DNA of 64,000 nt from Candidatus Daviesbacteria bacterium. Its GTDB lineage: Bacteria; Patescibacteriota; Microgenomatia; Daviesbacterales; UBA10151. Location of the stretch: the NCBI GenBank assembly GCA_016187035.1, contig JACPKL010000008.1, positions 35,990 to 99,989 on the forward strand, read 5' to 3'. The position numbers and the translations under genes are program-made. The notes beneath the pieces are model-generated. The model saw only the letters and a program-made list of their open reading frames with translations, had not been told where the DNA came from and did no database searches. Shown in pieces: positions 1,447-41,403 of the stretch. Numbering within the stretch: the stretch's first letter is position 1; each line of letters begins with the position of its first letter.

Positions 1447-1497
1447 TGTCATCCCTGCGAAAGCAGGGATCCATACAAAATCAAGTACGGAATGACA
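1447..1497. repeat. TGTCAT...ATGACA palindromic (MITE-like) element, 51 nt
   Basis: Termini are tgtcatcc / ggaatgaca. Inner perfect stem is ccctgc-GAAA-gcaggg. Intergenic, upstream of mreB. Confidence 0.8.
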
Positions 1498-2531: not shown

Positions 2532-3782
2532 ATGACTATTGGTTTTGACGGGTCAAGGGCTTTTGGACAAAATAAGCAAAGCTCTTCCTGGAATGAGCAA
2601 AGCTCTTCCTGGAATGAGCAAAGCTCTTCCTGGAATGAGCAAAGCTCTTCCTGGAATAAAACAGGAACAGAAAATTATTCTTATCAGCTGTTAAAAGCAT
2701 TGGCAAAAATTGACAATAAGAATAGCTATATTGTTTATTTAAGACCTGATGTGGTTATTCCTGGTTTTTCTTCTGTCGTTCCGAACGTAGTTATGTTCGC
2801 TCGCAATGACCAGGAGGATTGGCCGGAAAATTTCCAATTTAGGGTTATTCCCTGGCCCAGGTTTTGGACCCAGGGAGGCCTAGCTTTGCAGACTTTTAAA
2901 GACAAGTTGGATGTGCTATTTATTCCTTCCCATACCTTGCCTTTAATCAGGAAAAGAGGGCTTAAGACTATGATTACAGTACATGATTTAGGATCAGAGT
3001 ATCTGCCATCAATGCACCAAATTAAGCAGCGGTTATATTTGTCTTTTATGCAAAAATACCAGCTTAAAACTGCTAGCAAGATAATTGCAGTATCAAAGGC
3101 TACCAAACTAGATCTAATTAACAAAATAGGTATCAAGTCAGATAAAATAACAGTTGTTTATGAAGGATATGATGAAAAAAGATTTAAGATTCAAGATTTA
3201 AGATTTAAGAATGATATAAAAGTTAATAGTTTGAGATACTTTTTGTTTGTAGGGACAGTACAACCAAGGAAGAATTTGGAAAGGGTAATAAGAGCTTTCT
3301 CAACTCACCTCGAAGGTGAAAAAATGCAGTTACACCTTCGAGGTGGATTGAAGCTGCTGATTGCTGGTTCCAAGGGTTGGTTATCTGATGAAATATATAA
3401 ACTCCCTAAAAAACTGGGAATAGAGGATAAAGTCAAGTTTTTAGGCTATGTGCCTGACGAAAAGCTGGCTTATCTTTATAAAGGAGCTATAGCTTTGGTT
3501 TTTCCCTCTCTTTTTGAAGGATTTGGTTTGCCTATTCTGGAAGCCCAAGCTTGTAGTTGCCCGGTGATTACCTCAAACCTCTCATCCATGCCTGAAGTGG
3601 CAGGTAAAGGAGCAATTTTAGTGAATCCGTATTCTGTAGATGATATAGTAAGGGGGATGGTACAAGTTCAAAGTTCAAAGTTCAAAGTTCAAAGTTTGAT
3701 AAAAGCAGGGCTTCAGAATGTTAAAAGATTTAGCTGGGAAAAGGCAGCGAGGGAAACATTGAAAGTGCTATCGTCATCCTGA
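2532..3782 (+). CDS. Glycosyltransferase family 4 (GT-B, GT1-type C-terminal domain)
   Basis: FPSLFEGFGLPILEAQACSCPVITSNLSSMPEVAG (E-x7-E region). N-terminus MTIGFDGSRAF is typical of GT4. Carries several in-frame repeat insertions. Confidence 0.85.
   Translation: MTIGFDGSRAFGQNKQSSSWNEQSSSWNEQSSSWNEQSSSWNKTGTENYSYQLLKALAKIDNKNSYIVYLRPDVVIPGFSSVVPNVVMFARNDQEDWPENFQFRVIPWPRFWTQGGLALQTFKDKLDVLFIPSHTLPLIRKRGLKTMITVHDLGSEYLPSMHQIKQRLYLSFMQKYQLKTASKIIAVSKATKLDLINKIGIKSDKITVVYEGYDEKRFKIQDLRFKNDIKVNSLRYFLFVGTVQPRKNLERVIRAFSTHLEGEKMQLHLRGGLKLLIAGSKGWLSDEIYKLPKKLGIEDKVKFLGYVPDEKLAYLYKGAIALVFPSLFEGFGLPILEAQACSCPVITSNLSSMPEVAGKGAILVNPYSVDDIVRGMVQVQSSKFKVQSLIKAGLQNVKRFSWEKAARETLKVLSSS
2576..2659 (+). 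repeat. Tandem repeat, 21 bp x 4 (gcaaagctcttcctggaatga)
   Basis: Three identical units and a fourth with one mismatch. Encodes (QSSSWNE)x4 near the GT4 N-terminus. Confidence 0.95.
3179..3213 (+). repeat. Heptanucleotide-period array (aagattt family), in frame in GT4
   Basis: aagattt aagattc aagattt aagattt aagaatg. Translated KRFKIQDLRFKND. Confidence 0.85.
3306..3345 (+). repeat. Perfect hairpin element (13-bp stem, 14-nt loop), in frame in GT4
   Basis: cacctcgaaggtg (3306-3318) and caccttcgaggtg (3333-3345) are exact reverse complements. Translated HLEGEKMQLHLRG. A second copy lies at 59238-59307. Confidence 0.9.
3663..3696 (+). repeat. Heptanucleotide-period array (caaagtt), in frame in GT4
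   Basis: caagtt followed by caaagtt x4. Translated VQVQSSKFKVQS. Confidence 0.9.
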
Positions 3783-3796
3783 TACGAATTTCGCAG

Positions 3797-3877
3797 TGTC
3801 ATTGCGAGGAAGGAGTCTTCGACTGACGAAGCAATCTTCCGAGCTGGGAAGATTCCTCGGATGCACTCGGAATGACA
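3797..3877. repeat. TGTCAT...ATGACA palindromic (MITE-like) element, 81 nt
   Basis: tgtcattgcgagg...ctcggaatgaca. Inner stem aatcttcc-gagctg-ggaagatt. Fills the GT4/GT26 intergenic spacer. Confidence 0.8.
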
Positions 3878-3887
3878 GAAAGGGATT

Positions 3888-4661
3888 ATGAAGAAGGATG
3901 TTCTTGGAATCAAAATTGATGATGTTAATATTAACCAAGCTGTGGAAGTAGTATTTGGGTGGTTGAAAGAGGGAGGTAGGCGCTACATTGTTACTCCTAA
4001 TCCTGAGATAGTGGTGATGGCTCAAAAAGACCAAGAACTTAAAAATATTTTGAATAATGCAGATCTGGTAATTCCTGATGGGGTTGGTTTAAAAATAGCA
4101 ACTGATATAGTTTGTAATACTCCAGGAATAGACTTAATGGAAGCATTAATAAAATTAAGCAATGGAAAAGGCTTTACAACAGCCTTTTTAGGAGGCAAAG
4201 AAGGAGTAGCAGAAAAAGCAGCTGAGTGCTTACTGCGGAAGTATCCAAACCTTAAAATCTCATTCACTGGTTCTGGTGGTGAAATAAATGAGAATGGAGA
4301 GTTAATAGGAGAAGATTTAAGATTTAAGATTTATGATTTAAGAGATAAAAACGTTCATAAATCGTTAATCGTTAATCGTAAATCTCTGCCGAAGGCAGAT
4401 CTGCTCTTTATAGGTTTTGGTCCTCCAAAACAGGAAAAATGGATTGCTAAGAATTTAAATAAACTGCCTGTGAAGATAGCTATGGTTGTAGGGGGATCAT
4501 TAGATTATTTGTCTGGCCAAGTGCCAAGAGCTCCTAAATTTATCAGAAGCTTAGGATTGGAATGGCTATTTAGGCTAATAATTCAGCCCTGGAGGATCAG
4601 AAGACAGCTTGCGTTGCTCAAATATCTTTGGTTAATTTGGACAATGGATGGTGGAAAATAG
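3888..4661 (+). CDS. WecB/TagA/CpsF-family glycosyltransferase (GT26)
   Basis: VTPNPEIVVMAQKD, IPDGVGL, FIGFGPPKQEKWI, GGSLDYLSGQVPRAPKFIRSLGLEWLFRLIIQPWRIRR. Confidence 0.85.
   Translation: MKKDVLGIKIDDVNINQAVEVVFGWLKEGGRRYIVTPNPEIVVMAQKDQELKNILNNADLVIPDGVGLKIATDIVCNTPGIDLMEALIKLSNGKGFTTAFLGGKEGVAEKAAECLLRKYPNLKISFTGSGGEINENGELIGEDLRFKIYDLRDKNVHKSLIVNRKSLPKADLLFIGFGPPKQEKWIAKNLNKLPVKIAMVVGGSLDYLSGQVPRAPKFIRSLGLEWLFRLIIQPWRIRRQLALLKYLWLIWTMDGGK
4311..4385 (+). repeat. 75-nt heptamer-based imperfect hairpin, in frame in GT26 gene
   Basis: Left arm is aagattt-type units (4312-4346). Right arm is aaatcgt/taatcgt units (4356-4385), roughly the reverse complement. This is exactly 25 codons (EDLRFKIYDLRDKNVHKSLIVNRKS). 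Confidence 0.8.
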
Positions 4662-4787
4662 AAGATAGTGGTGGAAGGTAGATAATAGATGATAGATAAT
4701 TTCTATCTTCTAAGAGCGAAGCTCGCAAGCTTTGCTTATATTCTATTTTCAAAAATACCATCTTCCATATTCTATCATCTATCGTCT
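4651..4787. repeat. Composite purine-rich / pyrimidine-rich repeat block with central gagcgaagc core
   Basis: gaaaatagaa / ttctattttc and gatgatagata / tctatcatctatc occur as reverse complements. Centre is taagagcgaagctcgcaagctttgcttatattct. Intergenic, overlapping the GT26 stop. Confidence 0.75.
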
Positions 4788-4798
4788 AATATAATAAT

Positions 4799-5302
4799 AT
4801 GATAATCACAAAAAGCGCTAAAGATTTAAAACCAGTGTTAATGAAAGGAGCAAAATCAGGAGTTAAAAACCCCTATTATTTGATTGAAGATCAGGATCAA
4901 GTCATATTTGTAGTTGCTCCTGGGAGAAATGGCATAGAGTTTAATAAAACTTTAGGTTATTTTAGCTTTTTTCCTAATATGCAAACCTATCAGTGTTTAT
5001 ATGGACAAGGGGTAATTGTCATGCAGAGAAATGATGATTTTGGAGCAAAAGAGTTTAAAGTGGTAACTATAAATTCTAATAAACAAATTTTAGTGCCAGC
5101 AGGCTGGGGAATGTGCTTAATTAATACTGGAACTAACTTGTTAGTAGTAATAAGGAGCAGCAGGTTTGATGATAAGTATCTGGATACTAAACCAATTTTA
5201 GAAAAAAAGGGTTTTGCCTATTATATTGTGGAGAAAAAGGGTGAGATCAGTTTTGAGGAAAACCCTAATTATTCCATGCACCCACAGATTACTACAGAGT
5301 GA
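4799..5302 (+). CDS. Cupin-fold protein (cupin-type glucose-6-phosphate-isomerase-like; function uncertain)
   Basis: 167 aa. The beta-rich pattern GIEFNKTLGYF...YGQGVIVMQ...VPAGWGMCLINTG resembles cupin PGI-like proteins, but the metal-binding His residues are not obvious. Confidence 0.35.
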   Translation: MIITKSAKDLKPVLMKGAKSGVKNPYYLIEDQDQVIFVVAPGRNGIEFNKTLGYFSFFPNMQTYQCLYGQGVIVMQRNDDFGAKEFKVVTINSNKQILVPAGWGMCLINTGTNLLVVIRSSRFDDKYLDTKPILEKKGFAYYIVEKKGEISFEENPNYSMHPQITTE

Positions 5303-5334
5303 TAGTTTTTAGCTTTAGGACAACATATCCAAGT

Positions 5335-5550
5335 TTAATTAGCAGAAGATACCTTCTGAGTGATACCCAATAACCAGAGTACTGCTTCCTTTTTGTAGCG
5401 GCGGTCTCCTCTGGAATTTATTCTGATAGCTGGGAGTTTTCCTCTTTTACCCCATCTTTTAATAGTTAAAGGAGAAACTCTGAGAACTTGTGCAACTTCT
5501 CTAACAGTTAATAAATCAGGGAGATGTTCAAGGGAGATTTTATCAGCCAT
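5335..5550 (-). CDS. Excisionase/MerR-type helix-turn-helix DNA-binding protein
   Basis: LLTVREVAQVLRVSPLTIKRWGKRGKLPAIRINSRGDRRYKKEAV matches the excisionase-family HTH pattern. Confidence 0.7.
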   Translation of the reverse strand: MADKISLEHLPDLLTVREVAQVLRVSPLTIKRWGKRGKLPAIRINSRGDRRYKKEAVLWLLGITQKVSSAN

Positions 5551-5613
5551 TCTGTCTCAGAATATATCACATGGTTTCAGAGCATGTCAATACCCAGCCG
5601 TGTTGTTCCAGGG

Positions 5614-6054
5614 TTATTGTAATTCTACAGTAGCACCTGCTGCTGTTAATTTGGTTTTTGCTTCTTCAGCTGTTTGTTTGTTAACATTTTCTAAAACCGG
5701 TTTTGGAGCTGCTTCTACCAAATCTTTAGCTTCTTTAAGTCCTAAAGTAGGTACTAATTCCCTGACAGCTTTAATTACGGCTATTTTATTAGCTCCTGCT
5801 TGAGAAAGGACCACATTAAAGGTTGTTTTCTCCTCTTGCGGCTCACCTGCTGCTTGCCCTGAGTTTGTCGAAGGGGCTACTGCCACAGGCGCTTGAGCTG
5901 ATACACCAAACTTATCTTCCAGAGTATGGACTAAATCTGCCAGTTCTAGAACTGATAATTTCTCAATAGTAGCAATTATTCCTTCTAAGTTTTTACTAAC
6001 TGGTTTCTTTTCAGAAGACTTAGATTTCTGATCTTGTGTATTATCCATGTTCAT
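5614..6054 (-). CDS. rplL: 50S ribosomal protein L7/L12 with about 20-aa K/S-rich N-terminal extension
   Basis: [26 protein letters not shown]...[31 protein letters not shown]...ATVELQ. Confidence 0.9.
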
Positions 6055-6055
6055 T

Positions 6056-6147
6056 TGTCATTCTGAACGAAGTGAAGAATCTCTAGACTTGTTCTAAATA
6101 CATCTGAAATGAATTCAGAGATCCTTCGCTAATCGCTCAGGATGACG
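6056..6147. repeat. TGTCAT...ATGACG palindromic (MITE-like) element, 92 nt
   Basis: Left arm tgtcattctgaacgaagtgaagaatctct. Right arm agagatccttcgctaatcgctcaggatgacg. Fills the rplJ-rplL spacer and overlaps the last codons and stop of rplJ. Confidence 0.85.
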
Positions 6148-6679
6148 CTTGCGTGTCACCCCCCTTCATCTTTTGAATTTCTGAAAGTGCATATACTAAA
6201 TTTCTTAAGTTAGCTTGCAACACTCCCACAATTCCTTGCAAAGGAGCAACTAATACTCCTACTGTTTTAGCTCTTAGCTCCGGTTTTGAAGGAAGGGTGG
6301 AAAGTTGGATAATCTTTGCTTCATCCAGGCTGTCTTTACCTAAAAATCCTGATTTTACTTTACCTAAGCTGGCATCTTTTAATATTTTAACTAATATTTT
6401 AATAGGGGAGATCTCATCATCATAAGCAAAAAGTGCGGCAGTAGGACCTTCTAGATTGGAAGTTGGAAGTTGGAGGCTAGAAGCTGGAAGGGCACGCTCT
6501 AAAAGAGTATTCTTAGTAATACTAAATTCTGCAGATTGTTCCCTGAGTTTATTTCTTAGATCAGAGAGTTGCTTCATGGTCAGACCTTTGTAGTCTGTAA
6601 AAACCACTGCTTTAGCTTTAGCTAATTTTTCCTGTAATTTAATAACCAAATCTTGCTTTTGTTGTCTTGTTTTAGCCAT
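6137..6679 (-). CDS. rplJ: 50S ribosomal protein L10
   Basis: MAKTRQQKQDLVIKLQEKLAKAKAVVFTDYKGLTMKQLSDLRNKLRE. I place the start at ATG 6679. The 33 upstream codons of the track ORF look like non-coding leader. Confidence 0.85.
   Translation of the reverse strand: MAKTRQQKQDLVIKLQEKLAKAKAVVFTDYKGLTMKQLSDLRNKLREQSAEFSITKNTLLERALPASSLQLPTSNLEGPTAALFAYDDEISPIKILVKILKDASLGKVKSGFLGKDSLDEAKIIQLSTLPSKPELRAKTVGVLVAPLQGIVGVLQANLRNLVYALSEIQKMKGGDTQASS
6456..6490. repeat. Heptanucleotide-period array (ttggaag family), in frame in rplJ
   Basis: ttggaag ttggaag ttggagg ctagaag ctggaag on + strand. Read on the minus strand as PASSLQLPTSN. Confidence 0.8.
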
Positions 6680-12018: not shown

Positions 12019-13002
12019 ATGATAAAAATCCTTGTTAACGCATTAATAGGCATAATTCTGATTGTAGCCTGGTCGCGTTTTGTAAACCTTGATCAGATTC
12101 TTTCTACCCTTAAGAAAGTTAACTTAGTTTATTTGTTGCCTGTACTTGGTTTTTTATTCTTTTCTTCCATATTGAGAGCTGTCAGGTTTAAAGTATTTTT
12201 AGCAGAAATTAAAAAAATCAGCCTACAGGACCTGATATTTTTAAATGGGGCAGCTCAGATGCTTAATTTTTTTATCCCTATCAGAGCAGGGGAAATAGCC
12301 AAAGGAGTTTATTTAAATACTCAATATAGCCTAAATTTAGGCAAGTCTATTATCTGGGTTTTTATAGACAGGTTTGTGGATTTTTTGGTGTTATTGCTTT
12401 TGGCTGCTGCACTTTTGTTGGTAGTTCCGACCGCCCTTAGTATAACAATTATAAAAATTATAACCATTATACTAATCACAGTTTTACTAGCCGCTTATTT
12501 AGCAGTTTTTCAACTTAGTTCTGCCAGAAAAATCATTGTTTTTTTGAGGCCTCTCTTAATATTTAATCTTATTAAGATATATTTTGATAAAGTTACATCA
12601 TTCATTTTAGACTCTTTTTCCATTTTAGACAGGCATCCTAAGGATTTAGCTTTAATGGTGATAATTACTGTATTAGCTTATTTTACTGATGCTGCTGTCT
12701 GGTATTTTACTTTTTTATCATTAGGGGTTTCCCAGTCCTTTATAAAAATGTATCTGGGGCAGATGCTGTCTGCTTTGACTTATCTGATTCCTGCAGCCCC
12801 GGGATATGTGGGTTCAGCAGAAGCATCAGGATTATTAATACTTTCAGGAGTTTTTAATATAGAGGCCAATTTAGCCTCAGCCATGATAGTTTTATTCCAT
12901 ATAGTTTCAGCTGTTTTTATTTTAATGTTTGGCTTAATTTCTATATTCAGCCTCAAGATCAATCTTGGGGAAATATTAAAAAGAGCCTTAAATAGAAGCT
13001 AG
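12019..13002 (+). CDS. Lysylphosphatidylglycerol-synthase-TM-like (flippase-like) membrane protein
   Basis: 8 or so TM helices. N-terminal LRAVRFKVFL motif is typical of this family. Confidence 0.55.
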   Translation: MIKILVNALIGIILIVAWSRFVNLDQILSTLKKVNLVYLLPVLGFLFFSSILRAVRFKVFLAEIKKISLQDLIFLNGAAQMLNFFIPIRAGEIAKGVYLNTQYSLNLGKSIIWVFIDRFVDFLVLLLLAAALLLVVPTALSITIIKIITIILITVLLAAYLAVFQLSSARKIIVFLRPLLIFNLIKIYFDKVTSFILDSFSILDRHPKDLALMVIITVLAYFTDAAVWYFTFLSLGVSQSFIKMYLGQMLSALTYLIPAAPGYVGSAEASGLLILSGVFNIEANLASAMIVLFHIVSAVFILMFGLISIFSLKINLGEILKRALNRS

Positions 13003-13899
13003 ATCCAGCTTTATTGATGGGCCCATGGTGGGTGAAAGGGAGACTTTTTTAATCCTGGATTTGCCTATGGTTTGGAGAAGAGTTTTAATATTAGCTGATA
13101 ACTCCTCAGTGGGTTGATTAAGTTTACCTAAACCAAGATGGATAACAGGAGCTTTGGCTTCTGTTTTATATTCTGAGCGAAGCGAAGAATTCAAGCTCTG
13201 CTTATATTCTGTTTTACCAGCCTGGAAAGACTCTACTGCCTTTTTTAAATCAGTCACAATAGTACCGCTCTTAGGATTTGGCATGAGGCCCTTAGGTCCT
13301 AAAATCCGGGCAACTTTAGCCAGTTTAGGCATACCAGCAGGTGTTGTCACAATTAAATCAAAATCTATTTTGCCTTTACTGATATTTTCAATAGTCTCAT
13401 CGTCACCCTCATAAGCTAAGATCCTTAATTTCTTGCCTGAGGCATAGGGGAGGGAAACCAGTCCCCGTAGCCCGGTTTGGATAGTTAAAATATGGGCTTC
13501 CAAAGTGCCTGTAAAGGCTGAGAAAGAATGTTTTTTTACCAGATCTACAGCCTCATTCAGAGGGTAGGTTTTACTTCTATCTAAGTCTTTAGTAGCTTGC
13601 TGGTATTTTTTAGATCTGGGCTTGGATTTAGCAGGTCTCCTGTTATCAGGTTTCTGTTTTCGGTTTTCGGATGTAAGTTTATCAGTTCTCTGTTTGTCTG
13701 TTTCTGAAACTGATAAACTGGTAACAGATTTACCTTTATCTGACAACTGAGAACTGAGAACCGATGACTGATCTTCTCCTTCCAGCTCTGCTTTGAGTTT
13801 TTCCACCAGCTCATCTGTCCTGCCTAGTTTTTTGGCAGGTTTTTTTGGTTCTTTTTGTTGGATGGAATCATCCATTATTTTTGTTTTAGTTTTACCCAT
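12988..13899 (-). CDS. rplA: 50S ribosomal protein L1 with about 95-aa N-terminal extension and an internal 12-aa insertion
   Basis: Core motifs [33 protein letters not shown]...[11 protein letters not shown] overlaps the rplK stop (ATGGGTAA), as in coupled rplKA. Confidence 0.9.
13166..13211. repeat. 36-nt element insertion bounded by 10-bp direct repeat TTATATTCTG, in frame in rplA
   Basis: TTATATTCTG at 13166-13175 and 13202-13211. Between them lies agcgaagcgaagaattcaagctctgc. Duplicates the EYK codons of L1. Confidence 0.85.
13746..13773. repeat. Heptanucleotide-period array (actgaga), in frame in rplA N-terminal extension
   Basis: actgaga actgaga accgatg actgatc. The neighbouring sequence 13649-13670 has ttttcgg units. 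Confidence 0.8.
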
Positions 13900-14317: not shown

Positions 14318-14351
14318 AATCTGATTTTGATATTTTACCTGACTCCAAACG

Positions 14352-14420
14352 AGATTTAAGATTTAGGAATTAAGATTCAAGATTTTTATTCTTAAATCAT
14401 AAATCTTATCTCTTAAATCT
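14352..14420. repeat. aagattt-family imperfect hairpin in the nusG-rplK spacer
   Basis: agatttaaga (14352-14361) is the exact reverse complement of tcttaaatct (14411-14420). The interior is made of aagattt-like units and their complements. Confidence 0.8.
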
Positions 14421-15108
14421 AGATTTTTTGTACCTGCAGAAAATCCAGTTCAACAGGTGTTTCCCTGCCAAATATAGAAACCAGAACCTTGATCTTTCCT
14501 CTTTCTTCATCCACATGATCTACTTTACCAATAAAGTCTGCAAACGGGCCGTCAACAATTTTAACAGTATCAGAAACAGTAAAAACCTGTTTAAAAGTGG
14601 GAGCTTCCTCTTTGGTGAATTTAACAATAGTAGCTACTTCAGCATCAGAAATTGGGGTAGGTTTATTTCCCATACCCACAAAAGAAGTGACTCCGGGGGT
14701 GGTCCGTACAGCCAGCCAGGATGCTTCATCCAAAATCATTTTTACCAGAATATATCCGGGAAAAATCTTTTCTTTAACTTCTATCTTTTTACCGCTCCTG
14801 ATTTCAATTTTATCCTGCATTGGCACCAGGACTTCCAGGATTTTTTCTTCCAGATGTTCTGATTCAATTCTCTGCTTTAAAGTAGCAGCCACCTTATTTT
14901 CATGGCCTGAATAGGTATGGACTACATACCATTTAGCATTGGGGTTAGAGGATTTGACGGTAGATGGTGGAAGATTGATGGTAGAATCTTGAGGATTGAT
15001 GATAGAAGGTGGATCTTCTTCTTTCGATTTTCCATCTTCTATTTTCAAAGTACTATCTTCTACTTTTCTATCATCTATTGTCTGTTCTTCTGTTTTATTA
15101 TTGTCCAT
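14419..15108 (-). CDS. nusG: Transcription termination/antitermination factor NusG with about 55-aa N-terminal extension
   Basis: WYVVHTYSGHENKV (NGN domain). KOW region VKIVDGPFADFIGKVDHVDEERGKIKVLVSIFGRETPVEL. Confidence 0.9.
   Translation of the reverse strand: MDNNKTEEQTIDDRKVEDSTLKIEDGKSKEEDPPSIINPQDSTINLPPSTVKSSNPNAKWYVVHTYSGHENKVAATLKQRIESEHLEEKILEVLVPMQDKIEIRSGKKIEVKEKIFPGYILVKMILDEASWLAVRTTPGVTSFVGMGNKPTPISDAEVATIVKFTKEEAPTFKQVFTVSDTVKIVDGPFADFIGKVDHVDEERGKIKVLVSIFGRETPVELDFLQVQKI
14959..15083. repeat. gatagaag-family imperfect hairpin, in frame in the nusG 5' extension
   Basis: The left arm ggtagatggtggaagattgatgg...gatgatagaaggtgga is collinear with the reverse complement of the right arm tccatcttctattttcaaag...tctatcatctattgtct. 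The right arm closely matches spacer 4741-4787. Confidence 0.75.
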
Positions 15109-37291: not shown

Positions 37292-37504
37292 ATGTTAATA
37301 TGTTCAAGATGCGGTAAGGGAAAAAATACCCTCTCATTTTCCCGTCATAAAAAGGGTTCCTCTGGAGCTGGAGGAGTGTGGGCTTTGCGCGCCCCAATCC
37401 ACAAAAGAGTCCAAAAACCCAACCTCCATATTTATAATGGAAAAAAATACTGCACTAAATGTTTAAGAATAGTTAAAAAAGACGTGTCCGCAATAACTGC
37501 TTAA
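37292..37504 (+). CDS. rpmB: 50S ribosomal protein L28
   Basis: CSRCGKG...SFSRHKKGSSGAGGVWALRAPIHKRVQKPNLH pattern of bL28. Confidence 0.65.
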   Translation: MLICSRCGKGKNTLSFSRHKKGSSGAGGVWALRAPIHKRVQKPNLHIYNGKKYCTKCLRIVKKDVSAITA

Positions 37505-38405
37505 GAGGAAAATCAGGGTAGCCGTTTAAGAAGTCTTTGAAGGATATTGGTTTTTTCCCCTCCATTTGCAATAAATGTTCATCCTTCCTGTCATTCTGAG
37601 CGATTAGCGAAGAATCTTCCATGGATCGGGAAGATTCCTCACTCTGTTTTGGATAACGTATGGGTGGCAAAAATTTAATAATTTTGTTATTCCATTTTGT
37701 CCATACCCCTGGCCAGGGATAATAAGCGCGGATCTCTCTGTCTAATTTTTCAGGTTGGGGAGGATTATTAATATTAAAATAACCATCTTCTTTAACAAAG
37801 TGTTTAGTGTAAGTAGCCTTGGAATGATCTTGGGGGGTAGGATTAATTGATCCTTCCAAGTATTGTTTTATTACCTTTAAAATTAGTTGTCCTCCTAGTT
37901 CATTTAGCTTAGTCAATAAAGTATCTCTAGTTTCTTTGGGAGTCAGTATATATTCCTGTTGGGCTAGTATATCTCCGCTATCTACCTCATCAGTTATTTG
38001 AATGATAGTAACTCCTGAAATCTTGTCTCCATTAAGAATAGCAGTAGGAGCAGGGGAAGGACCTCTATATTTGGGTAAAAGTGAATGATGGATATTTAAT
38101 GGAGCATATTTTGGTAAGGTTAGCAAGTCTTTAGACAGGATTAATCCATAATCTTCCACTACCAAAAAATCACTCTTCAGCTTGGCAATTTTATTTATTA
38201 CTTCCTTGTCTAATTTACTTGTTTCCAAAGTTGGAATATTTAATTCACTGGCTAATTTTTTAACAGGACTATCAGGAATTGTGATAACTAACGATACAGG
38301 AAAGATTGAATAGACAATCTTTAATCCAATAATTGAGTACTTTGTATTCCCAAAAAAAACTAGTTTAAGTTTTGAGTTTTGATTTGAAGTTTTAACATTT
38401 GACAT
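37473..38405 (-). CDS. fmt: Methionyl-tRNA formyltransferase
   Basis: VFFGNT..., NIHHSLLPKYRGPSPAPTAIL, C-terminal LQMEGKKPISFKDFLNGY. Position is downstream of def. Confidence 0.85.
   Translation of the reverse strand: MSNVKTSNQNSKLKLVFFGNTKYSIIGLKIVYSIFPVSLVITIPDSPVKKLASELNIPTLETSKLDKEVINKIAKLKSDFLVVEDYGLILSKDLLTLPKYAPLNIHHSLLPKYRGPSPAPTAILNGDKISGVTIIQITDEVDSGDILAQQEYILTPKETRDTLLTKLNELGGQLILKVIKQYLEGSINPTPQDHSKATYTKHFVKEDGYFNINNPPQPEKLDREIRAYYPWPGVWTKWNNKIIKFLPPIRYPKQSEESSRSMEDSSLIAQNDRKDEHLLQMEGKKPISFKDFLNGYPDFPLKQLLRTRLF
37589..37646. repeat. TGTCAT-type palindromic element, in frame in the fmt C-terminal domain
   Basis: tgtcattctgagcgattagcgaagaatcttcc-atggatc-gggaagattcctcactctg. The arm nearly matches the reverse complement of the right arm of the 6056-6147 element. 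Translated (minus) as about QSEESSRSMEDSSLIAQNDRK. Confidence 0.8.
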
Positions 38406-39097: not shown

Positions 39098-39367
39098 CTA
39101 GGGTCTTCTATTATTTTGAAGTTGATGTAACCGCCACATAAATATTTTGGCTTTGGATTTGGCAGAAGTGTATCCTTTGGTAAAACTCAAAGTTTCCTCC
39201 AAGAGCCTTCTATCCAGCTGTTTGGCCAGTTTAATATATAGGGAATAACGCTTAGTATCTCCTAAGCTTTCTGCTAAGTATATCCCATATTCCTGAAATT
39301 CATGTGCTATATTCTTGGGTCTATCTTTAAACTTAGCATCAGCTATAGCTGTTTTGATGGACTTCAT
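39098..39367 (-). CDS. Hypothetical 89-aa protein
   Basis: ATGA-type 4-nt overlap with the upstream gene. No motif recognised. Confidence 0.45.
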   Translation of the reverse strand: MKSIKTAIADAKFKDRPKNIAHEFQEYGIYLAESLGDTKRYSLYIKLAKQLDRRLLEETLSFTKGYTSAKSKAKIFMWRLHQLQNNRRP

Positions 39368-41403
39368 GGACTTCCTGATTTTGTTGCCTCTTTTAATTGT
39401 TCTAATGCTTCCAGATAATCTGGTTTTAAGTTTAAGGTAGTTTTTAGATTTTCAATTTCTTCATCCTTTTTACCGATACTTTCTAAAATTAAAGCCTTAT
39501 TATAATAAAGCTTAGGATCAGTTGGGGCCAGCTTGATAGCCATATCTAAAGCTTCCAAAGTTTTGTTAACATACTTTTTATCTAAACTAGCTAATTCATA
39601 ATATGTCCTAATAGCTGTTCTCCAAAAAGAAACGTTTTTAGGGCTAATTGTTAAACTGATTTTTAATTGATTTAAAGCCTCATCTTCTAAAGCAGCAGAA
39701 AGAGAAGCGTCAGTTTCTTTTAAAGCAGCAGCAGCCGCAGCTGCAGAATAGCTAAGTTCAGAACGGTAGAACGGCTCTCCTTTATTTAAGTCAGAAGCCA
39801 TGCTTAATAAATTATATGCTTTGCCAGGATTACCTAAATCTGAGGCTTTTTGACCTTGATTGAACAGTGTATCAGCATACCAAAGCTGGAAGATAGAATA
39901 TAGAAGATAGAGGGTGGAAAAAATCACAATCCCTTTAGCTATATTAGTATAAATTTTCCGACGGTAGATGATAGAAAATAGATGATGGAATTTTGAAGCT
40001 GGAAGATGGAAGGTAGAAATAGAATCAGTAGCAACAAAAACCAAAGCAGGAAAAAGGTAAAAAAAGACAGCTATGATAACTACTGAGAATAGGAAGAAGT
40101 TATAGATAAGATAGGAGATATATGAGGCAAGAATACTATAAAGTAGCAGATTTTTGGTTCCTTTGCGTTTTAGTATAAGCGAAGCTTGATACTTCGTATT
40201 AACAATTATAAATTTTATAAAAATTATAATAATTATCAAATAAGTTCCAAATCCTACAATGCCTGTGGTAGCTAGATAATTCAAATACTCATTATGGGCT
40301 TTATTGTATAAAAAATCCCACTCAGAGGTTAAGTTATGCTCCTTTGGCCTGAATTGATAATATGAATAAGCAAATGTCTCCACTCCTGAGCCAAACAAGG
40401 GATAATGTTTAAAAATATCCAGGGCTCCATGCCAGACAATAAACCTGATTTGTCCTGATTCTGTGCCGCCATTTTCCAGTTGTGTACCTACAGAAGGATT
40501 GGAAGGTAAGCTGATGGTAGGTCTTGCTGGAGCAGCAAATTTAGAGACTAACCTGAAAGAGGTTAAAGCAGACCCAAAAAGAACATTAATAACCAGAAAA
40601 CTTAATATTACTATAAGTAATGATTTCAACTTAACTATATTTACGATTCCACCCTTAGGGTGGAGCCTTAGAATATAGAGACCGATAAGAGTGATAAATC
40701 CAACTATTAGGCCTAATGTTGGACCTCTTGAGTAGGTAAAGGTAAAAGCCAGGTAATAAATAACAAGTAGTAAGTAGTAAGTAGTAAGTAGTAAGGGGGA
40801 AGGAGCAGATAAGAAGAAATACAGGGCAGGGAAGATCAACATGGCAAGGTAGGCTGCCATCCAGTTTGGCTGGCCTAAGGTGGCAAAAACTCTTTCATAA
40901 ACTTTTTGCACCCAGCAGTCAGCATTAAATTCTCCTCTTAAAATTACACAGGAAGGTGATACCTGAAAGTGTTCTAAAATTCCCCAGACAGCAATAATCA
41001 GACCTGAAGCTAAGCCTATTTTTAAAAGGGGCTTAATTTTATCTGCTGTAACATTAGATACAAAGGCCCAGTAAAGCAAAAGATAACAGATTATGGATAA
41101 GAGGCCTCCATTGGAGCGTGAATAATAACCCCAGATAGAAGTATGAAGGTCTATTGAGAAAATAGTTGATAAAATATTAGCCCCTAAAAACAGCAGTAAT
41201 GGAATGTCCAAGGGTGTACGATTTAAGATTAAAGATTTATGATTTATGATTTTAAGAAGCCAACTCCCTACTATAACTACAGTCAATCCATAAGTTAAAA
41301 TCATCTTGTTATATTCAAAAAGCTCATAATTTAAAGAGGTCCAAAAAAGAGGAGTTAGAAAAAAGAGAGTATAAAAAGAATAGGAAATAATTTTATCAAG
41401 CAT
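39364..41403 (-). CDS. O-antigen-ligase-like polytopic membrane protein with C-terminal TPR repeats
   Basis: YSRGPTLGLIVGFITL (Wzy_C-like) and NEYLNYLATTGIVG. The C-terminal 150 aa are TPR-like (AYNLLSMASDLNKGEPFY..., YYNKALILESIGKKDEEI). Confidence 0.65.
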   Translation of the reverse strand: MLDKIISYSFYTLFFLTPLFWTSLNYELFEYNKMILTYGLTVVIVGSWLLKIINHKSLILNRTPLDIPLLLFLGANILSTIFSIDLHTSIWGYYSRSNGGLLSIICYLLLYWAFVSNVTADKIKPLLKIGLASGLIIAVWGILEHFQVSPSCVILRGEFNADCWVQKVYERVFATLGQPNWMAAYLAMLIFPALYFFLSAPSPLLLTTYYLLLVIYYLAFTFTYSRGPTLGLIVGFITLIGLYILRLHPKGGIVNIVKLKSLLIVILSFLVINVLFGSALTSFRLVSKFAAPARPTISLPSNPSVGTQLENGGTESGQIRFIVWHGALDIFKHYPLFGSGVETFAYSYYQFRPKEHNLTSEWDFLYNKAHNEYLNYLATTGIVGFGTYLIIIIIFIKFIIVNTKYQASLILKRKGTKNLLLYSILASYISYLIYNFFLFSVVIIAVFFYLFPALVFVATDSISTFHLPASKFHHLFSIIYRRKIYTNIAKGIVIFSTLYLLYSIFQLWYADTLFNQGQKASDLGNPGKAYNLLSMASDLNKGEPFYRSELSYSAAAAAAALKETDASLSAALEDEALNQLKISLTISPKNVSFWRTAIRTYYELASLDKKYVNKTLEALDMAIKLAPTDPKLYYNKALILESIGKKDEEIENLKTTLNLKPDYLEALEQLKEATKSGSP
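39884..40025. repeat. gatagaag/ggaagat-family repeat blocks, in frame in a TM region
   Basis: agctggaagatagaatatagaagatagagggtgg (39884-39917) and ggtagatgatagaaaatagatgatgg...ggaagatggaaggtagaaatagaat (39963-40025). The antisense strand is read as FSTLYLLYSIFQLW / DSISTFHLPASKFHHLFSIIY. Confidence 0.75.
40767..40794. repeat. Heptanucleotide array gtagtaa x4, in frame in a TM region
   Basis: Four exact gtagtaa units, read on the minus strand as LLLTTYYLL. Confidence 0.9.
41221..41255. repeat. aagattt-family heptamer array, in frame
   Basis: atttaag attaaag atttatg atttatg attttaa, read on the minus strand as LKIINHKSLILN. Confidence 0.85.

Follow-up and report, generated by a model that had tools for sequence, protein, structure and literature searches.

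We report that the gene for methionyl-tRNA formyltransferase (fmt) in the 64,000-nt stretch of Candidatus Daviesbacteria DNA analyzed here (the window) carries an extra in-frame segment built around a 70-nt palindromic element. In all likelihood this element is a selfish palindromic repeat of the repetitive extragenic palindrome (REP) type, an inverted dimer from the CGTC-tagged superfamily that was inserted in frame into a turn of the protein. Translation of REP-type repeats and of Rickettsia palindromic elements (RPEs) inside genes is known, and was first described for the RPEs. What is new is that the host belongs to the candidate phyla radiation (CPR), that the unit variant contains G·A, that the host gene is fmt and that one turn has been used recurrently.

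A palindromic insert in the C-terminal domain of Fmt

The open reading frame (ORF) at 37473-38405 is a true Fmt, with both domains, the catalytic Asn/His/Asp and the Fmt fold. Pfam identifies Formyl_trans_N (1.8e-30) and Formyl_trans_C (1.1e-08), the E. coli enzyme (PDB 1fmt) matches at 8.7e-35 (HMMER), the predicted fold aligns with 1fmt, 2fmt and 4iqf at TM 0.76-0.79 (Foldseek), and N104, H106 and D142 are invariant across a 120-protein Fmt alignment. These matches confirm the initial annotation in placing the element within fmt on the minus strand; its choice of host gene stands, and its word "essential" is somewhat strong, as fmt is dispensable in several bacteria, with a growth cost. The best-named relatives are entered at NCBI as methionyl-tRNA formyltransferase of Candidatus Daviesbacteria (Microgenomates, CPR). 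The gene order def-fmt-M50 peptidase recurs in the related loci L082, L083, L206 and L207, and the window has a G+C content of 37.7% with an ORF cover of about 93%. The locus comprises the following features.

37473-38405, minus strand: fmt, methionyl-tRNA formyltransferase, 310 aa (ORF and Pfam)
37575-37664, minus strand: extra segment, codons 248-277, PIRYPKQSEESSRSMEDSSLIAQNDRKDEH, in place of the two-residue turn GG (alignments and empty-site DNA)
37589-37658, no strand assigned: palindromic element of 70 nt, two REP-type units as an inverted dimer whose tags face outward (sequence, fold and dissection)
37589-37618, plus strand: unit A, intact (tag TGTC, stem ATTCT/AGAAT, covariance model)
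37619-37630, no strand assigned: spacer between the unit tails, 12 nt, CCATGGATCGGG, holding the loop of the long hairpin (sequence and fold)
37631-37658, minus strand: unit B, decayed (comparison with the intact units of L014, L019 and L207 at the same site)

We sized the insertion by aligning the window protein with 119 relatives (120 proteins in all, 55-75% identical over aligned columns). Where 101 of the 120 read KFLP-xx-LLQMEGKK, with a two-residue turn (GG), the window protein reads KFLP-PIRYPKQSEESSRSMEDSSLIAQNDRKDEH-LLQMEGKK: 30 residues (248-277) replace 2, a net gain of 28. The comparison with related Fmt proteins that had been called for also bears out an insertion, as the closest orthologs lack the segment; the nearest complete relatives without it are P0002 (69% identical by BLASTP, 75% over aligned columns) and P0010 (74% over aligned columns). 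The DNA of an empty site, in locus L085, reads AAATTCTTACCA-GGAGGT-TTACTGCAA, with a right flank also given as TTACTGCAAATGGAAGGC. The conserved flank stops at KFLP (P247); PIRYP, which had been counted as part of a conserved FLPPIRYP, belongs to the insert.

In Fmt from E. coli (1fmt) and B. anthracis (4iqf), about 35 residues occupy this position; HMMER aligns the insert with them at no identity and near-zero posterior confidence. A homologous segment in unrelated bacteria had been named as the observation that would speak against an insertion; a segment of similar length is indeed there, and homology is not borne out. Because Daviesbacteria-type Fmt has lost the canonical segment, with two residues left in 101 of the 120 proteins, the insert is not a retained version of it. 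The analysis supports the proposal that the C-terminal domain of Fmt carries an in-frame insertion from a palindromic "spacer" family. An intein, an intron and programmed frameshifting fit poorly with the 90-nt length of the insert, its open frame and the absence of their hallmarks.

The 58-nt string picked out initially matches the plus strand exactly at 37589-37646 and contains the stem described, 9 bp of gaatcttcc (37612-37620) with ggaagattc (37629-37637), which grows to 15 pairs when read on the fmt sense strand. Those boundaries capture the core and fall slightly short, the true end being at 37658 (70 nt). A 106-nt region folds at -27.2 kcal/mol (z = -2.6; 2 of 200 shuffles are equally stable). 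In the interior of unit A, a tandem GA faces GA, followed by an inner stem GC/GC and the loop GATTA, and the tail is CTT; a covariance model of the unit (R1), run on the 64-kb window, scores it at 39.4 bits (E = 4.8e-7). Unit B (CGTT ATCCA AA AC AGA GT GA GGAAT CTT) has a perfect inner half and a decayed outer end, CGTTATCCAAAAC in place of TGTCATYCYGAAC. Four substitutions in its first 10 nt abolish the tag and two of five outer pairs, and R1 does not detect it at E <= 10. On the fmt strand the element encodes RYPKQSEES-SRSME-DSSLIAQND, in which unit B gives RYPKQSEES (an intact unit would give CHSEQSEES) and unit A gives DSSLIAQND; SEESSRSMEDSSLIAQNDR is also peptide belonging to the Fmt insert. 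One of the three sense frames through the element is stop-free, as is one of the three antisense frames, and the tag region GTCATYCTGA holds a TGA in one frame.

AlphaFold2, run with the 120-sequence alignment, models the window Fmt at a mean predicted local distance difference test score (pLDDT) of 91.7 and a predicted template modeling score of 0.88. Residues 247-271 are predicted as coil between strands 241-246 and 278-281, with a block mean pLDDT of 54-58 over 251-270. Structure prediction, which had been suggested as a check for a surface loop, thus places a low-confidence coil between two strands of a confident fold.

An assembly artefact, in which the contig was wrongly joined at the repeat and the element does not lie in fmt, is extremely improbable. 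Assemblers can be confused at this repeat, as illustrated by L081/P0001 (Logan, SRR12113383, 1577 nt), which is 99% identical to the window def-fmt. Coming from an independent run, it agrees at 100% across the left junction and the first ~71 nt of what was inserted, with unit B and spacer identical. Inside unit A it leaves the window sequence and continues (about 1479-1577 of the contig) in a variant unit, TGTCATTCTGAAGCGACTGCGAAGAATCTT, and DNA absent from the window, which would truncate Fmt. This contig probably switched between two repeat copies; the alternative is a real rearranged allele. With the same left junction and an exit inside unit A, it was rejected as an empty-site or polymorphic allele and not used as evidence of polymorphism. 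The identical left junction, unit B and spacer of this same contig nevertheless argue against a misjoined window. So do the two flanks, which are both in-frame fmt with the conserved LLQMEGKKPISFKDFLNGYPDFP end encoded downstream, the def-fmt-M50 order, which is that of relatives, and the filling of the same place in other lineages (eight filled alleles including the window).

The repeat unit and its relation to known palindromic repeats

We scanned public metagenomes with the pattern TGTCATYSYGAN{4,30}GARSRATCT, which does not impose complementarity, and obtained at least 80 loci (L086-L165) with G+C contents of 30-67% (median 57%). As the matches span DNA of such diverse composition, the unit type with tandem GA (GA-type) is widespread and not CPR-specific. 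Among the matches listed, the stem triplets are fully complementary in 106 of 108 arms, in four versions (chance, 1/8), the inner stem is pairable in 80 of 108 arms, and at least 17 dimers occur, the spacers measuring 2-55 nt. Long open frames hold about 29% of the sampled elements, against 70% of random positions, a crude measure in GC-rich DNA.

We aligned 52 distinct units, all equally long: pairing holds in 99.5% of cells, and both sides have changed in five of seven pairs; 0 of 500 shuffles match this level of pairing, and slid registers come nowhere near it. All 52 start the stem with an A:T and a T:A pair, and tag columns 2-4 (GTC), which lie outside the stem, are invariant. The pairing and the two-sided changes indicate that each unit is a hairpin maintained by compensatory change.

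Such strong covariation might mean that the hairpin acts at the RNA or DNA level in the def-fmt operon, for instance by affecting mRNA stability, pausing ribosomes or serving as a site for gyrase or a nuclease, its translation being a by-product. Copies at gene ends within operons (rplJ-rplL, before mreB, between glycosyltransferase genes) would fit such a role, and placement at gene ends has been taken as a sign of RNA-level roles for REPs (PMC3733652). We nonetheless consider it quite improbable. Covariation is equally expected if a protein recognizes the DNA hairpin during mobilization, in the fmt copy neither the hairpin nor the tag of unit B survives, which is at odds with selection on the structure at this locus, and the element is missing from the nearest relatives. 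Nor does Rfam recognize it: at gathering thresholds the whole window yields three tRNAs and no other family, and even at E <= 1 nothing is found around the fmt copy or across 2700-6300. Literature searches by unit sequence or by the peptides CHPERSEGS/VILSEAKDL returned nothing relevant, and a search for REPs together with CPR found no linking paper.

The closest published counterparts are CGTC-tagged REPs. Di Nocera, De Gregorio & Rocco (2013, BMC Genomics 14:522; PMC3733652) distinguish two REP superfamilies by their tags, GTAG and CGTC. Units of the latter have an unpaired tag CGTC (variants TGTC, CCTC), an 8-9 bp stem starting A,T, a loop of 4-5 nt and a 3-nt tail with consensus CCA. They occur mostly as dimers and also within genes, where they encode 8-30 residues, in hosts from five phyla and with no transposase associated; R. 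conorii RPE-6 corresponds to CGTC-1 and RPE-4 to CGTC-4 (PMC3733652). The portion of the intragenic list available to us contains VIPAKAGI, CHSRESGNP, SFPRKRES, DSRFRGND and RHPGLDPGS, with dimers of the form VIPAKAGI...IPAFAGMT.

The window elements resemble these units in the tag (TGTC at 37589-37592 in unit A, CGTC in the unit at 6118-6147, a decayed CGTT in unit B) and the A,T start of the stem. Agreement is partial in the stem, which spans nine positions, in the loop, 5 nt in unit A, and in the 3-nt tail. Like the published dimers (VIPAKAGI...IPAFAGMT), the fmt copy, 6056-6147 and 3797-3877 are inverted and carry their tags on the outside. Units likewise occur in genes, and peptides encoded here match VIPAKAGI, CHSRESGNP, DSRFRGND and RHPGLDPGS of Additional file 3. 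A canonical unit with a CCA tail is found at 1447-1473. Moreover, at the same turn of L206/P0013 Fmt, TGTCATTCCCGCGAAAGCGGGAATCT encodes VIPAKAGI and forms a canonical CGTC-1 unit with a clean 8-bp stem and a GAAA loop; VIPAKAGI is the peptide given for R. conorii CGTC-1 in that same portion of the source. A host in the CPR/Microgenomates differs from the published range, lying beyond the five phyla of PMC3733652. Judged by its sequence features, the fmt element fits a variant unit type within the CGTC-tagged REP superfamily.

RPEs offer a second comparison. According to the accounts of Ogata et al. 2000 in the available portions of PMC10969869 and PMC3733652, RPEs are palindromic repeats inserted in frame in unrelated housekeeping genes and translated; they are thought to occupy sites that the fold tolerates, in hosts with small genomes. 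Like them, the window element keeps the frame of the protein-coding gene that holds it, and orthologs lack it. Classic RPE-1, as those accounts portray it, measures ~150 bp and encodes a conserved peptide, whereas the window element measures 70 nt and its conserved entity is the DNA or RNA hairpin. Only an RPE-6-type unit (CGTC-1, TGTCATTCCCGCGAAAGCGGGAATC = VIPAKAGI) was matched, in L206 and approximately at 1447-1473; the window fmt copy, compared with Rickettsia by published descriptions, is a GA variant. In part 2 of 3 of Additional file 3 (PMC3733652), fmt is not among the R. conorii CGTC rows. Repeated insertion at one turn across lineages is likewise not reported for RPEs in the sections available, and PMC3733652 notes a recurrent site only for recB of two Xanthomonas species.

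Two other classes were considered and rejected. REP doublets forming hairpins (REPINs) and GTAG REPs are mobilized by REP-associated tyrosine transposases (RAYTs; Bertels & Rainey 2011, PMC3116915). The window elements resemble REPINs in combining two short imperfect inverted palindromes in one larger hairpin and in being non-autonomous and mostly intergenic; the RAYT-type assignment fails on the tag, TGTC/CGTC and not GTAG, and on the lack of Y1_Tnp in 50 of the 64 window ORFs. With miniature inverted-repeat transposable elements (PMC10969869) they share small size, non-coding nature, terminal inverted repeats, multiple copies and occasional in-frame fusions; this class was set aside as about ten inspected copies show no target-site duplication and no insertion sequence (IS) with matching ends turned up in the window.

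The copies examined for target-site duplication, all negative, are the fmt copy, three other window dimers and the fmt copies of L014, L019, L082, L083, L206 and L207. Sequence 5' of the tag shows only a pyrimidine bias at -2 and -8 to -7, position -1 being forced by the scan pattern. Pfam scans found no transposase in 50 of the 64 window ORFs (the rest being four very large and about ten very small ones), no IS200/IS605-type gene among the same 50, and no autonomous IS with matching ends in this 64 kb of the genome.

Recurrence at the Fmt turn

The Fmt turn is a hot spot for these repeats. At least 12 residues stand there in 19 of the 120 Fmt proteins (16%), with unrelated lengths, and about 15 of the 19 show repeat-type peptides, such as CHPERSEGS...PQND, RHSERSEES, SHPALDAGS, RHSDPGLDPGEES and VILNKRSAVKDL...DQND. 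Carriers are scattered on a rough neighbor-joining (NJ) tree, which requires at least 18 state changes. At the DNA level, the smallest of eight filled alleles (the window, L082, L083, L084, L206, L207, L014 and L019) consists of one unit and the largest is a 138-nt dimer containing nested hairpins; their subtypes differ and their junctions vary by 1-5 codons, and the pairs L207/L019 and L082/L083 clearly share one insertion event each. We also searched 80 loci picked solely by Fmt similarity (496,635 nt) with the unit model and found 11 units in about seven elements, two of which lie in this turn; under uniform placement we estimate the chance of this at ~1e-3 or less.

A single ancient insertion in a Microgenomates ancestor, inherited vertically and precisely lost many times, would explain the shared site by ancestry. 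The two pairs just named agree with some vertical inheritance, L207 and L019 having the same units and similar right flanks. The window units also resemble those of L014 in type and order, the right unit being identical at 27 of 29 positions, and palindromes are in general prone to slipped-strand deletion. We regard this history as improbable, however. Subtypes could not interconvert by drift while remaining perfect hairpins (CGTC-1 in L206, GA-types elsewhere, single units as against dimers of 59-138 nt), junctions lie 1-5 codons apart, 101 of the 120 proteins would each need a clean return to a two-residue turn, and the state changes on the tree are numerous. Finally, the window and L014 units share ~93% identity although Fmt of the two hosts shares only 45%, so the element is either younger than the host split or itself constrained.

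Recurrence in 16% of relatives might instead reflect an insert useful to the protein, one that refills the lost C-terminal barrel segment of ~35 residues and serves, for example, in binding initiator tRNA; the segment of similar length found exactly there in E. coli and B. anthracis Fmt would agree. This is very doubtful in our view. The inserts run from 11 to 49 residues with entirely different sequences between lineages, and what is preserved is a DNA palindrome and no peptide motif. The window insert is modelled as coil, most relatives manage with two residues, and its peptide is Ser/Glu/Asp-rich and acidic (net charge ~ -2), a poor match for RNA binding that disfavors a tRNA-binding role.

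With repeat insertion as the preferred reading, recurrence would be best explained if insertions happened repeatedly and selection let through those at permissive, stop-free, in-frame positions, which is the view we favor; some target preference of the element is possible as well. A stronger version, in which the turn KFLP-GG-LLQMEGKK is a true landing site where TGTC/CGTC REP dimers integrate by a target-directed mechanism, seems unlikely to us. Were it true, filled and empty metagenome fmt alleles would form a natural integration series for working out how the REP superfamily moves, a mechanism that PMC3733652 leaves as an open question for CGTC REPs, and REP insertion would be a regular source of new loops in CPR core proteins. 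Two specific targets were tried and rejected. Microhomology between the empty site (AAATTCTTACC) and the unit (AGATTCTTCGC) is not general, filled alleles using other KFL codons. A Shine-Dalgarno-like target (GGAGG at the empty site) fails in that three window copies precede such a sequence but the fmt copies of other lineages do not.

We propose that one copy of the dimer, with units of ~28 nt, inserted into the tight beta-turn that joins the last two strands of a reduced Fmt C-terminal domain. The net gain of 84 nt, in the sole stop-free sense frame, would have kept the gene open, and the repeat would be translated as a surface loop of 28-30 residues, Ser/Glu/Asp-rich and probably disordered, leaving intact the catalytic N-terminal domain and the conserved LLQMEGKK...FLNGY end. 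Unit A remains intact and closely matches an intergenic copy; unit B has started to decay. In a compact genome, purifying selection would remove core-gene insertions except stop-free ones in permissive loops. We infer both the near-neutrality of the insert and the way the element moves.

Several points weigh against this reading or soften its parts. Low pLDDT is weak evidence of disorder, since the insert is unique to the query and has no alignment support, and we infer translation of the insert from the open frame and the conserved C-terminal residues downstream. About 20 nt of the extra segment (37575-37588 and 37659-37664) fall outside recognizable units. GA-type units differ from published CGTC units in several ways: the stem contains tandem G·A/A·G, with seven Watson-Crick pairs of nine; the loop is commonly 3 nt; the inner stem varies from 2 to 6 bp, with some long inner hairpins; and the tail is CTC, CTG, CTT or CTA and not CCA, a count partly forced by the scan pattern. 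The NJ tree of 120 Fmt proteins is crude, and the window and L014 elements may share a source or ancestry, making the number of independent insertions uncertain. The case for mobility is built from copy number and distribution only, because no target-site duplication, transposase or autonomous partner was found.

If the reading is right, it extends Rickettsia-style writing of palindromic repeats into housekeeping proteins to the small, dense genomes of the CPR, and places in a published superfamily a metagenomic repeat (TGTCATYCTGAGCG...GAAGRATCT) that is very common and apparently has no name. For annotation, it would mean that CHPERSEGS, VILSEAKDL, DSSLRSE and ...QND in CPR proteins are repeat-derived and not domain features, and that assemblies may break or switch at these repeats. 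The recurrent Fmt turn would also offer a concrete system for weighing tolerance against targeting in repeat persistence.

The preceding beta-turn, W235-K244, is a second hot spot, with extra residues in 27 of the 120 relatives. Its peptides include SPSAKATGDK, RQGSSGQAK and NPSTSSGQVK, types that may come from another repeat family; two are REP-like (SPSRHPES...CHPERLA).

Other copies in the window

The sequence GTCATTCTGAGCG occurs five times in the window with up to two mismatches (0.65 expected; 0 of 100 shuffles reach five), and R1 finds five significant units there. The remaining copies and related palindromes are as follows.

6056-6147, no strand assigned: sister inverted dimer between rplJ and rplL (R1, 47.9 + 35.0 bits; fold z = -4.85)
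3797-3877, no strand assigned: sister dimer between a GT4 glycosyltransferase gene and a WecG-family gene (R1 at 3849-3877, 31.6 bits)
3772-3797: solo unit remnant, giving the stop codon of the GT4 ORF
1447-1473, plus strand: canonical CGTC-1-type unit, TGTC-ATCCCTGC-GAAA-GCAGGGAT-CCA (anatomy compared with PMC3733652)
1489-1497, plus strand: tag of a degenerate partner unit, GGAATGACA (element 1447-1497)
13168-13192, plus strand: tag-less unit in frame in rplA (ribosomal protein L1), read NSSLRSEY (R1 at 13170-13190, 28.9 bits, E = 1.4e-4)
2774-2811, no strand assigned: short palindrome with GTC(A/G)T termini, in frame in the GT4 ORF, SSVVPNVVMFARND (fold z = -3.0)

The unit at 6118-6147 (minus strand, tag CGTC) is the closest relative of unit A, identical at 26 of 30 positions (28 nt at 93%), and the two differ by one compensatory pair change. 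The initial annotation had noted this arm copy, at 6117-6147, as non-coding; the match holds, and the tag and stem in fact supply the last codons of rplJ and its TGA. The rplJ end ...TQASS* comes from the repeat unit (6137-6147), from GCGTCATCCTGA. The GT4 glycosyltransferase similarly ends ...VLSSS* on a repeat unit (3772-3782), TCGTCATCCTGA, with a TGA stop. The dimer at 3797-3877 and the fmt copy have a common inner stem, GAAGCAATCTTCC/GGGAAGATTCCTC.

The unit at 1447-1473 has a clean 8-bp stem, a GAAA loop and a CCA tail (1471-1473), and is marginal with the GA-type model (E = 0.31). The element containing it (1447-1497) lies directly upstream of the Shine-Dalgarno sequence and start (1508) of mreB; purine-rich Shine-Dalgarno-like sequence also follows the copies at 3877 and 37589.

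In-frame copies are also found in rplA and a glycosyltransferase, in this window alone. The claim that fmt is a second essential gene with an in-frame copy most likely refers to rplA as the other core translation gene (13168-13192). The rplA unit is ATATTCTGAGCGAAGCGAAGAATTC, and its frame reads TAT where an intact tag would give TGA. It sits in a 36-nt insert between 9-nt direct repeats, AGAATATAA (13166-13174 and 13202-13210), and this insert partly resembles intergenic 4715-4749. The rplA ORF (12988-13899, minus strand) encodes an L1 of 303 aa. Its Pfam Ribosomal_L1 match is confined to residues 165-294, and an extension rich in Lys, Ser and Asp makes up the first ~100 residues.

The GT4 ORF also contains, close to its 5' end (2571-2654), a 21-nt unit present in four tandem copies and read QSSSWNE x4. 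Distinct from the TGTC-tagged units are two further dispersed repeat families with a 7-nt period, one GATTTAA-type and one GGAAG/TAGAAG-type. One group of copies is at 3175-3217, 4308-4350, 14347-14420 and 41214-41256, and a second at 6438-6490, 14956-15013 and 39882-40026; some lie in apparent 5' parts of ORFs, namely nusG (14419-15108) and a Wzy_C/TPR ORF (39364-41403).

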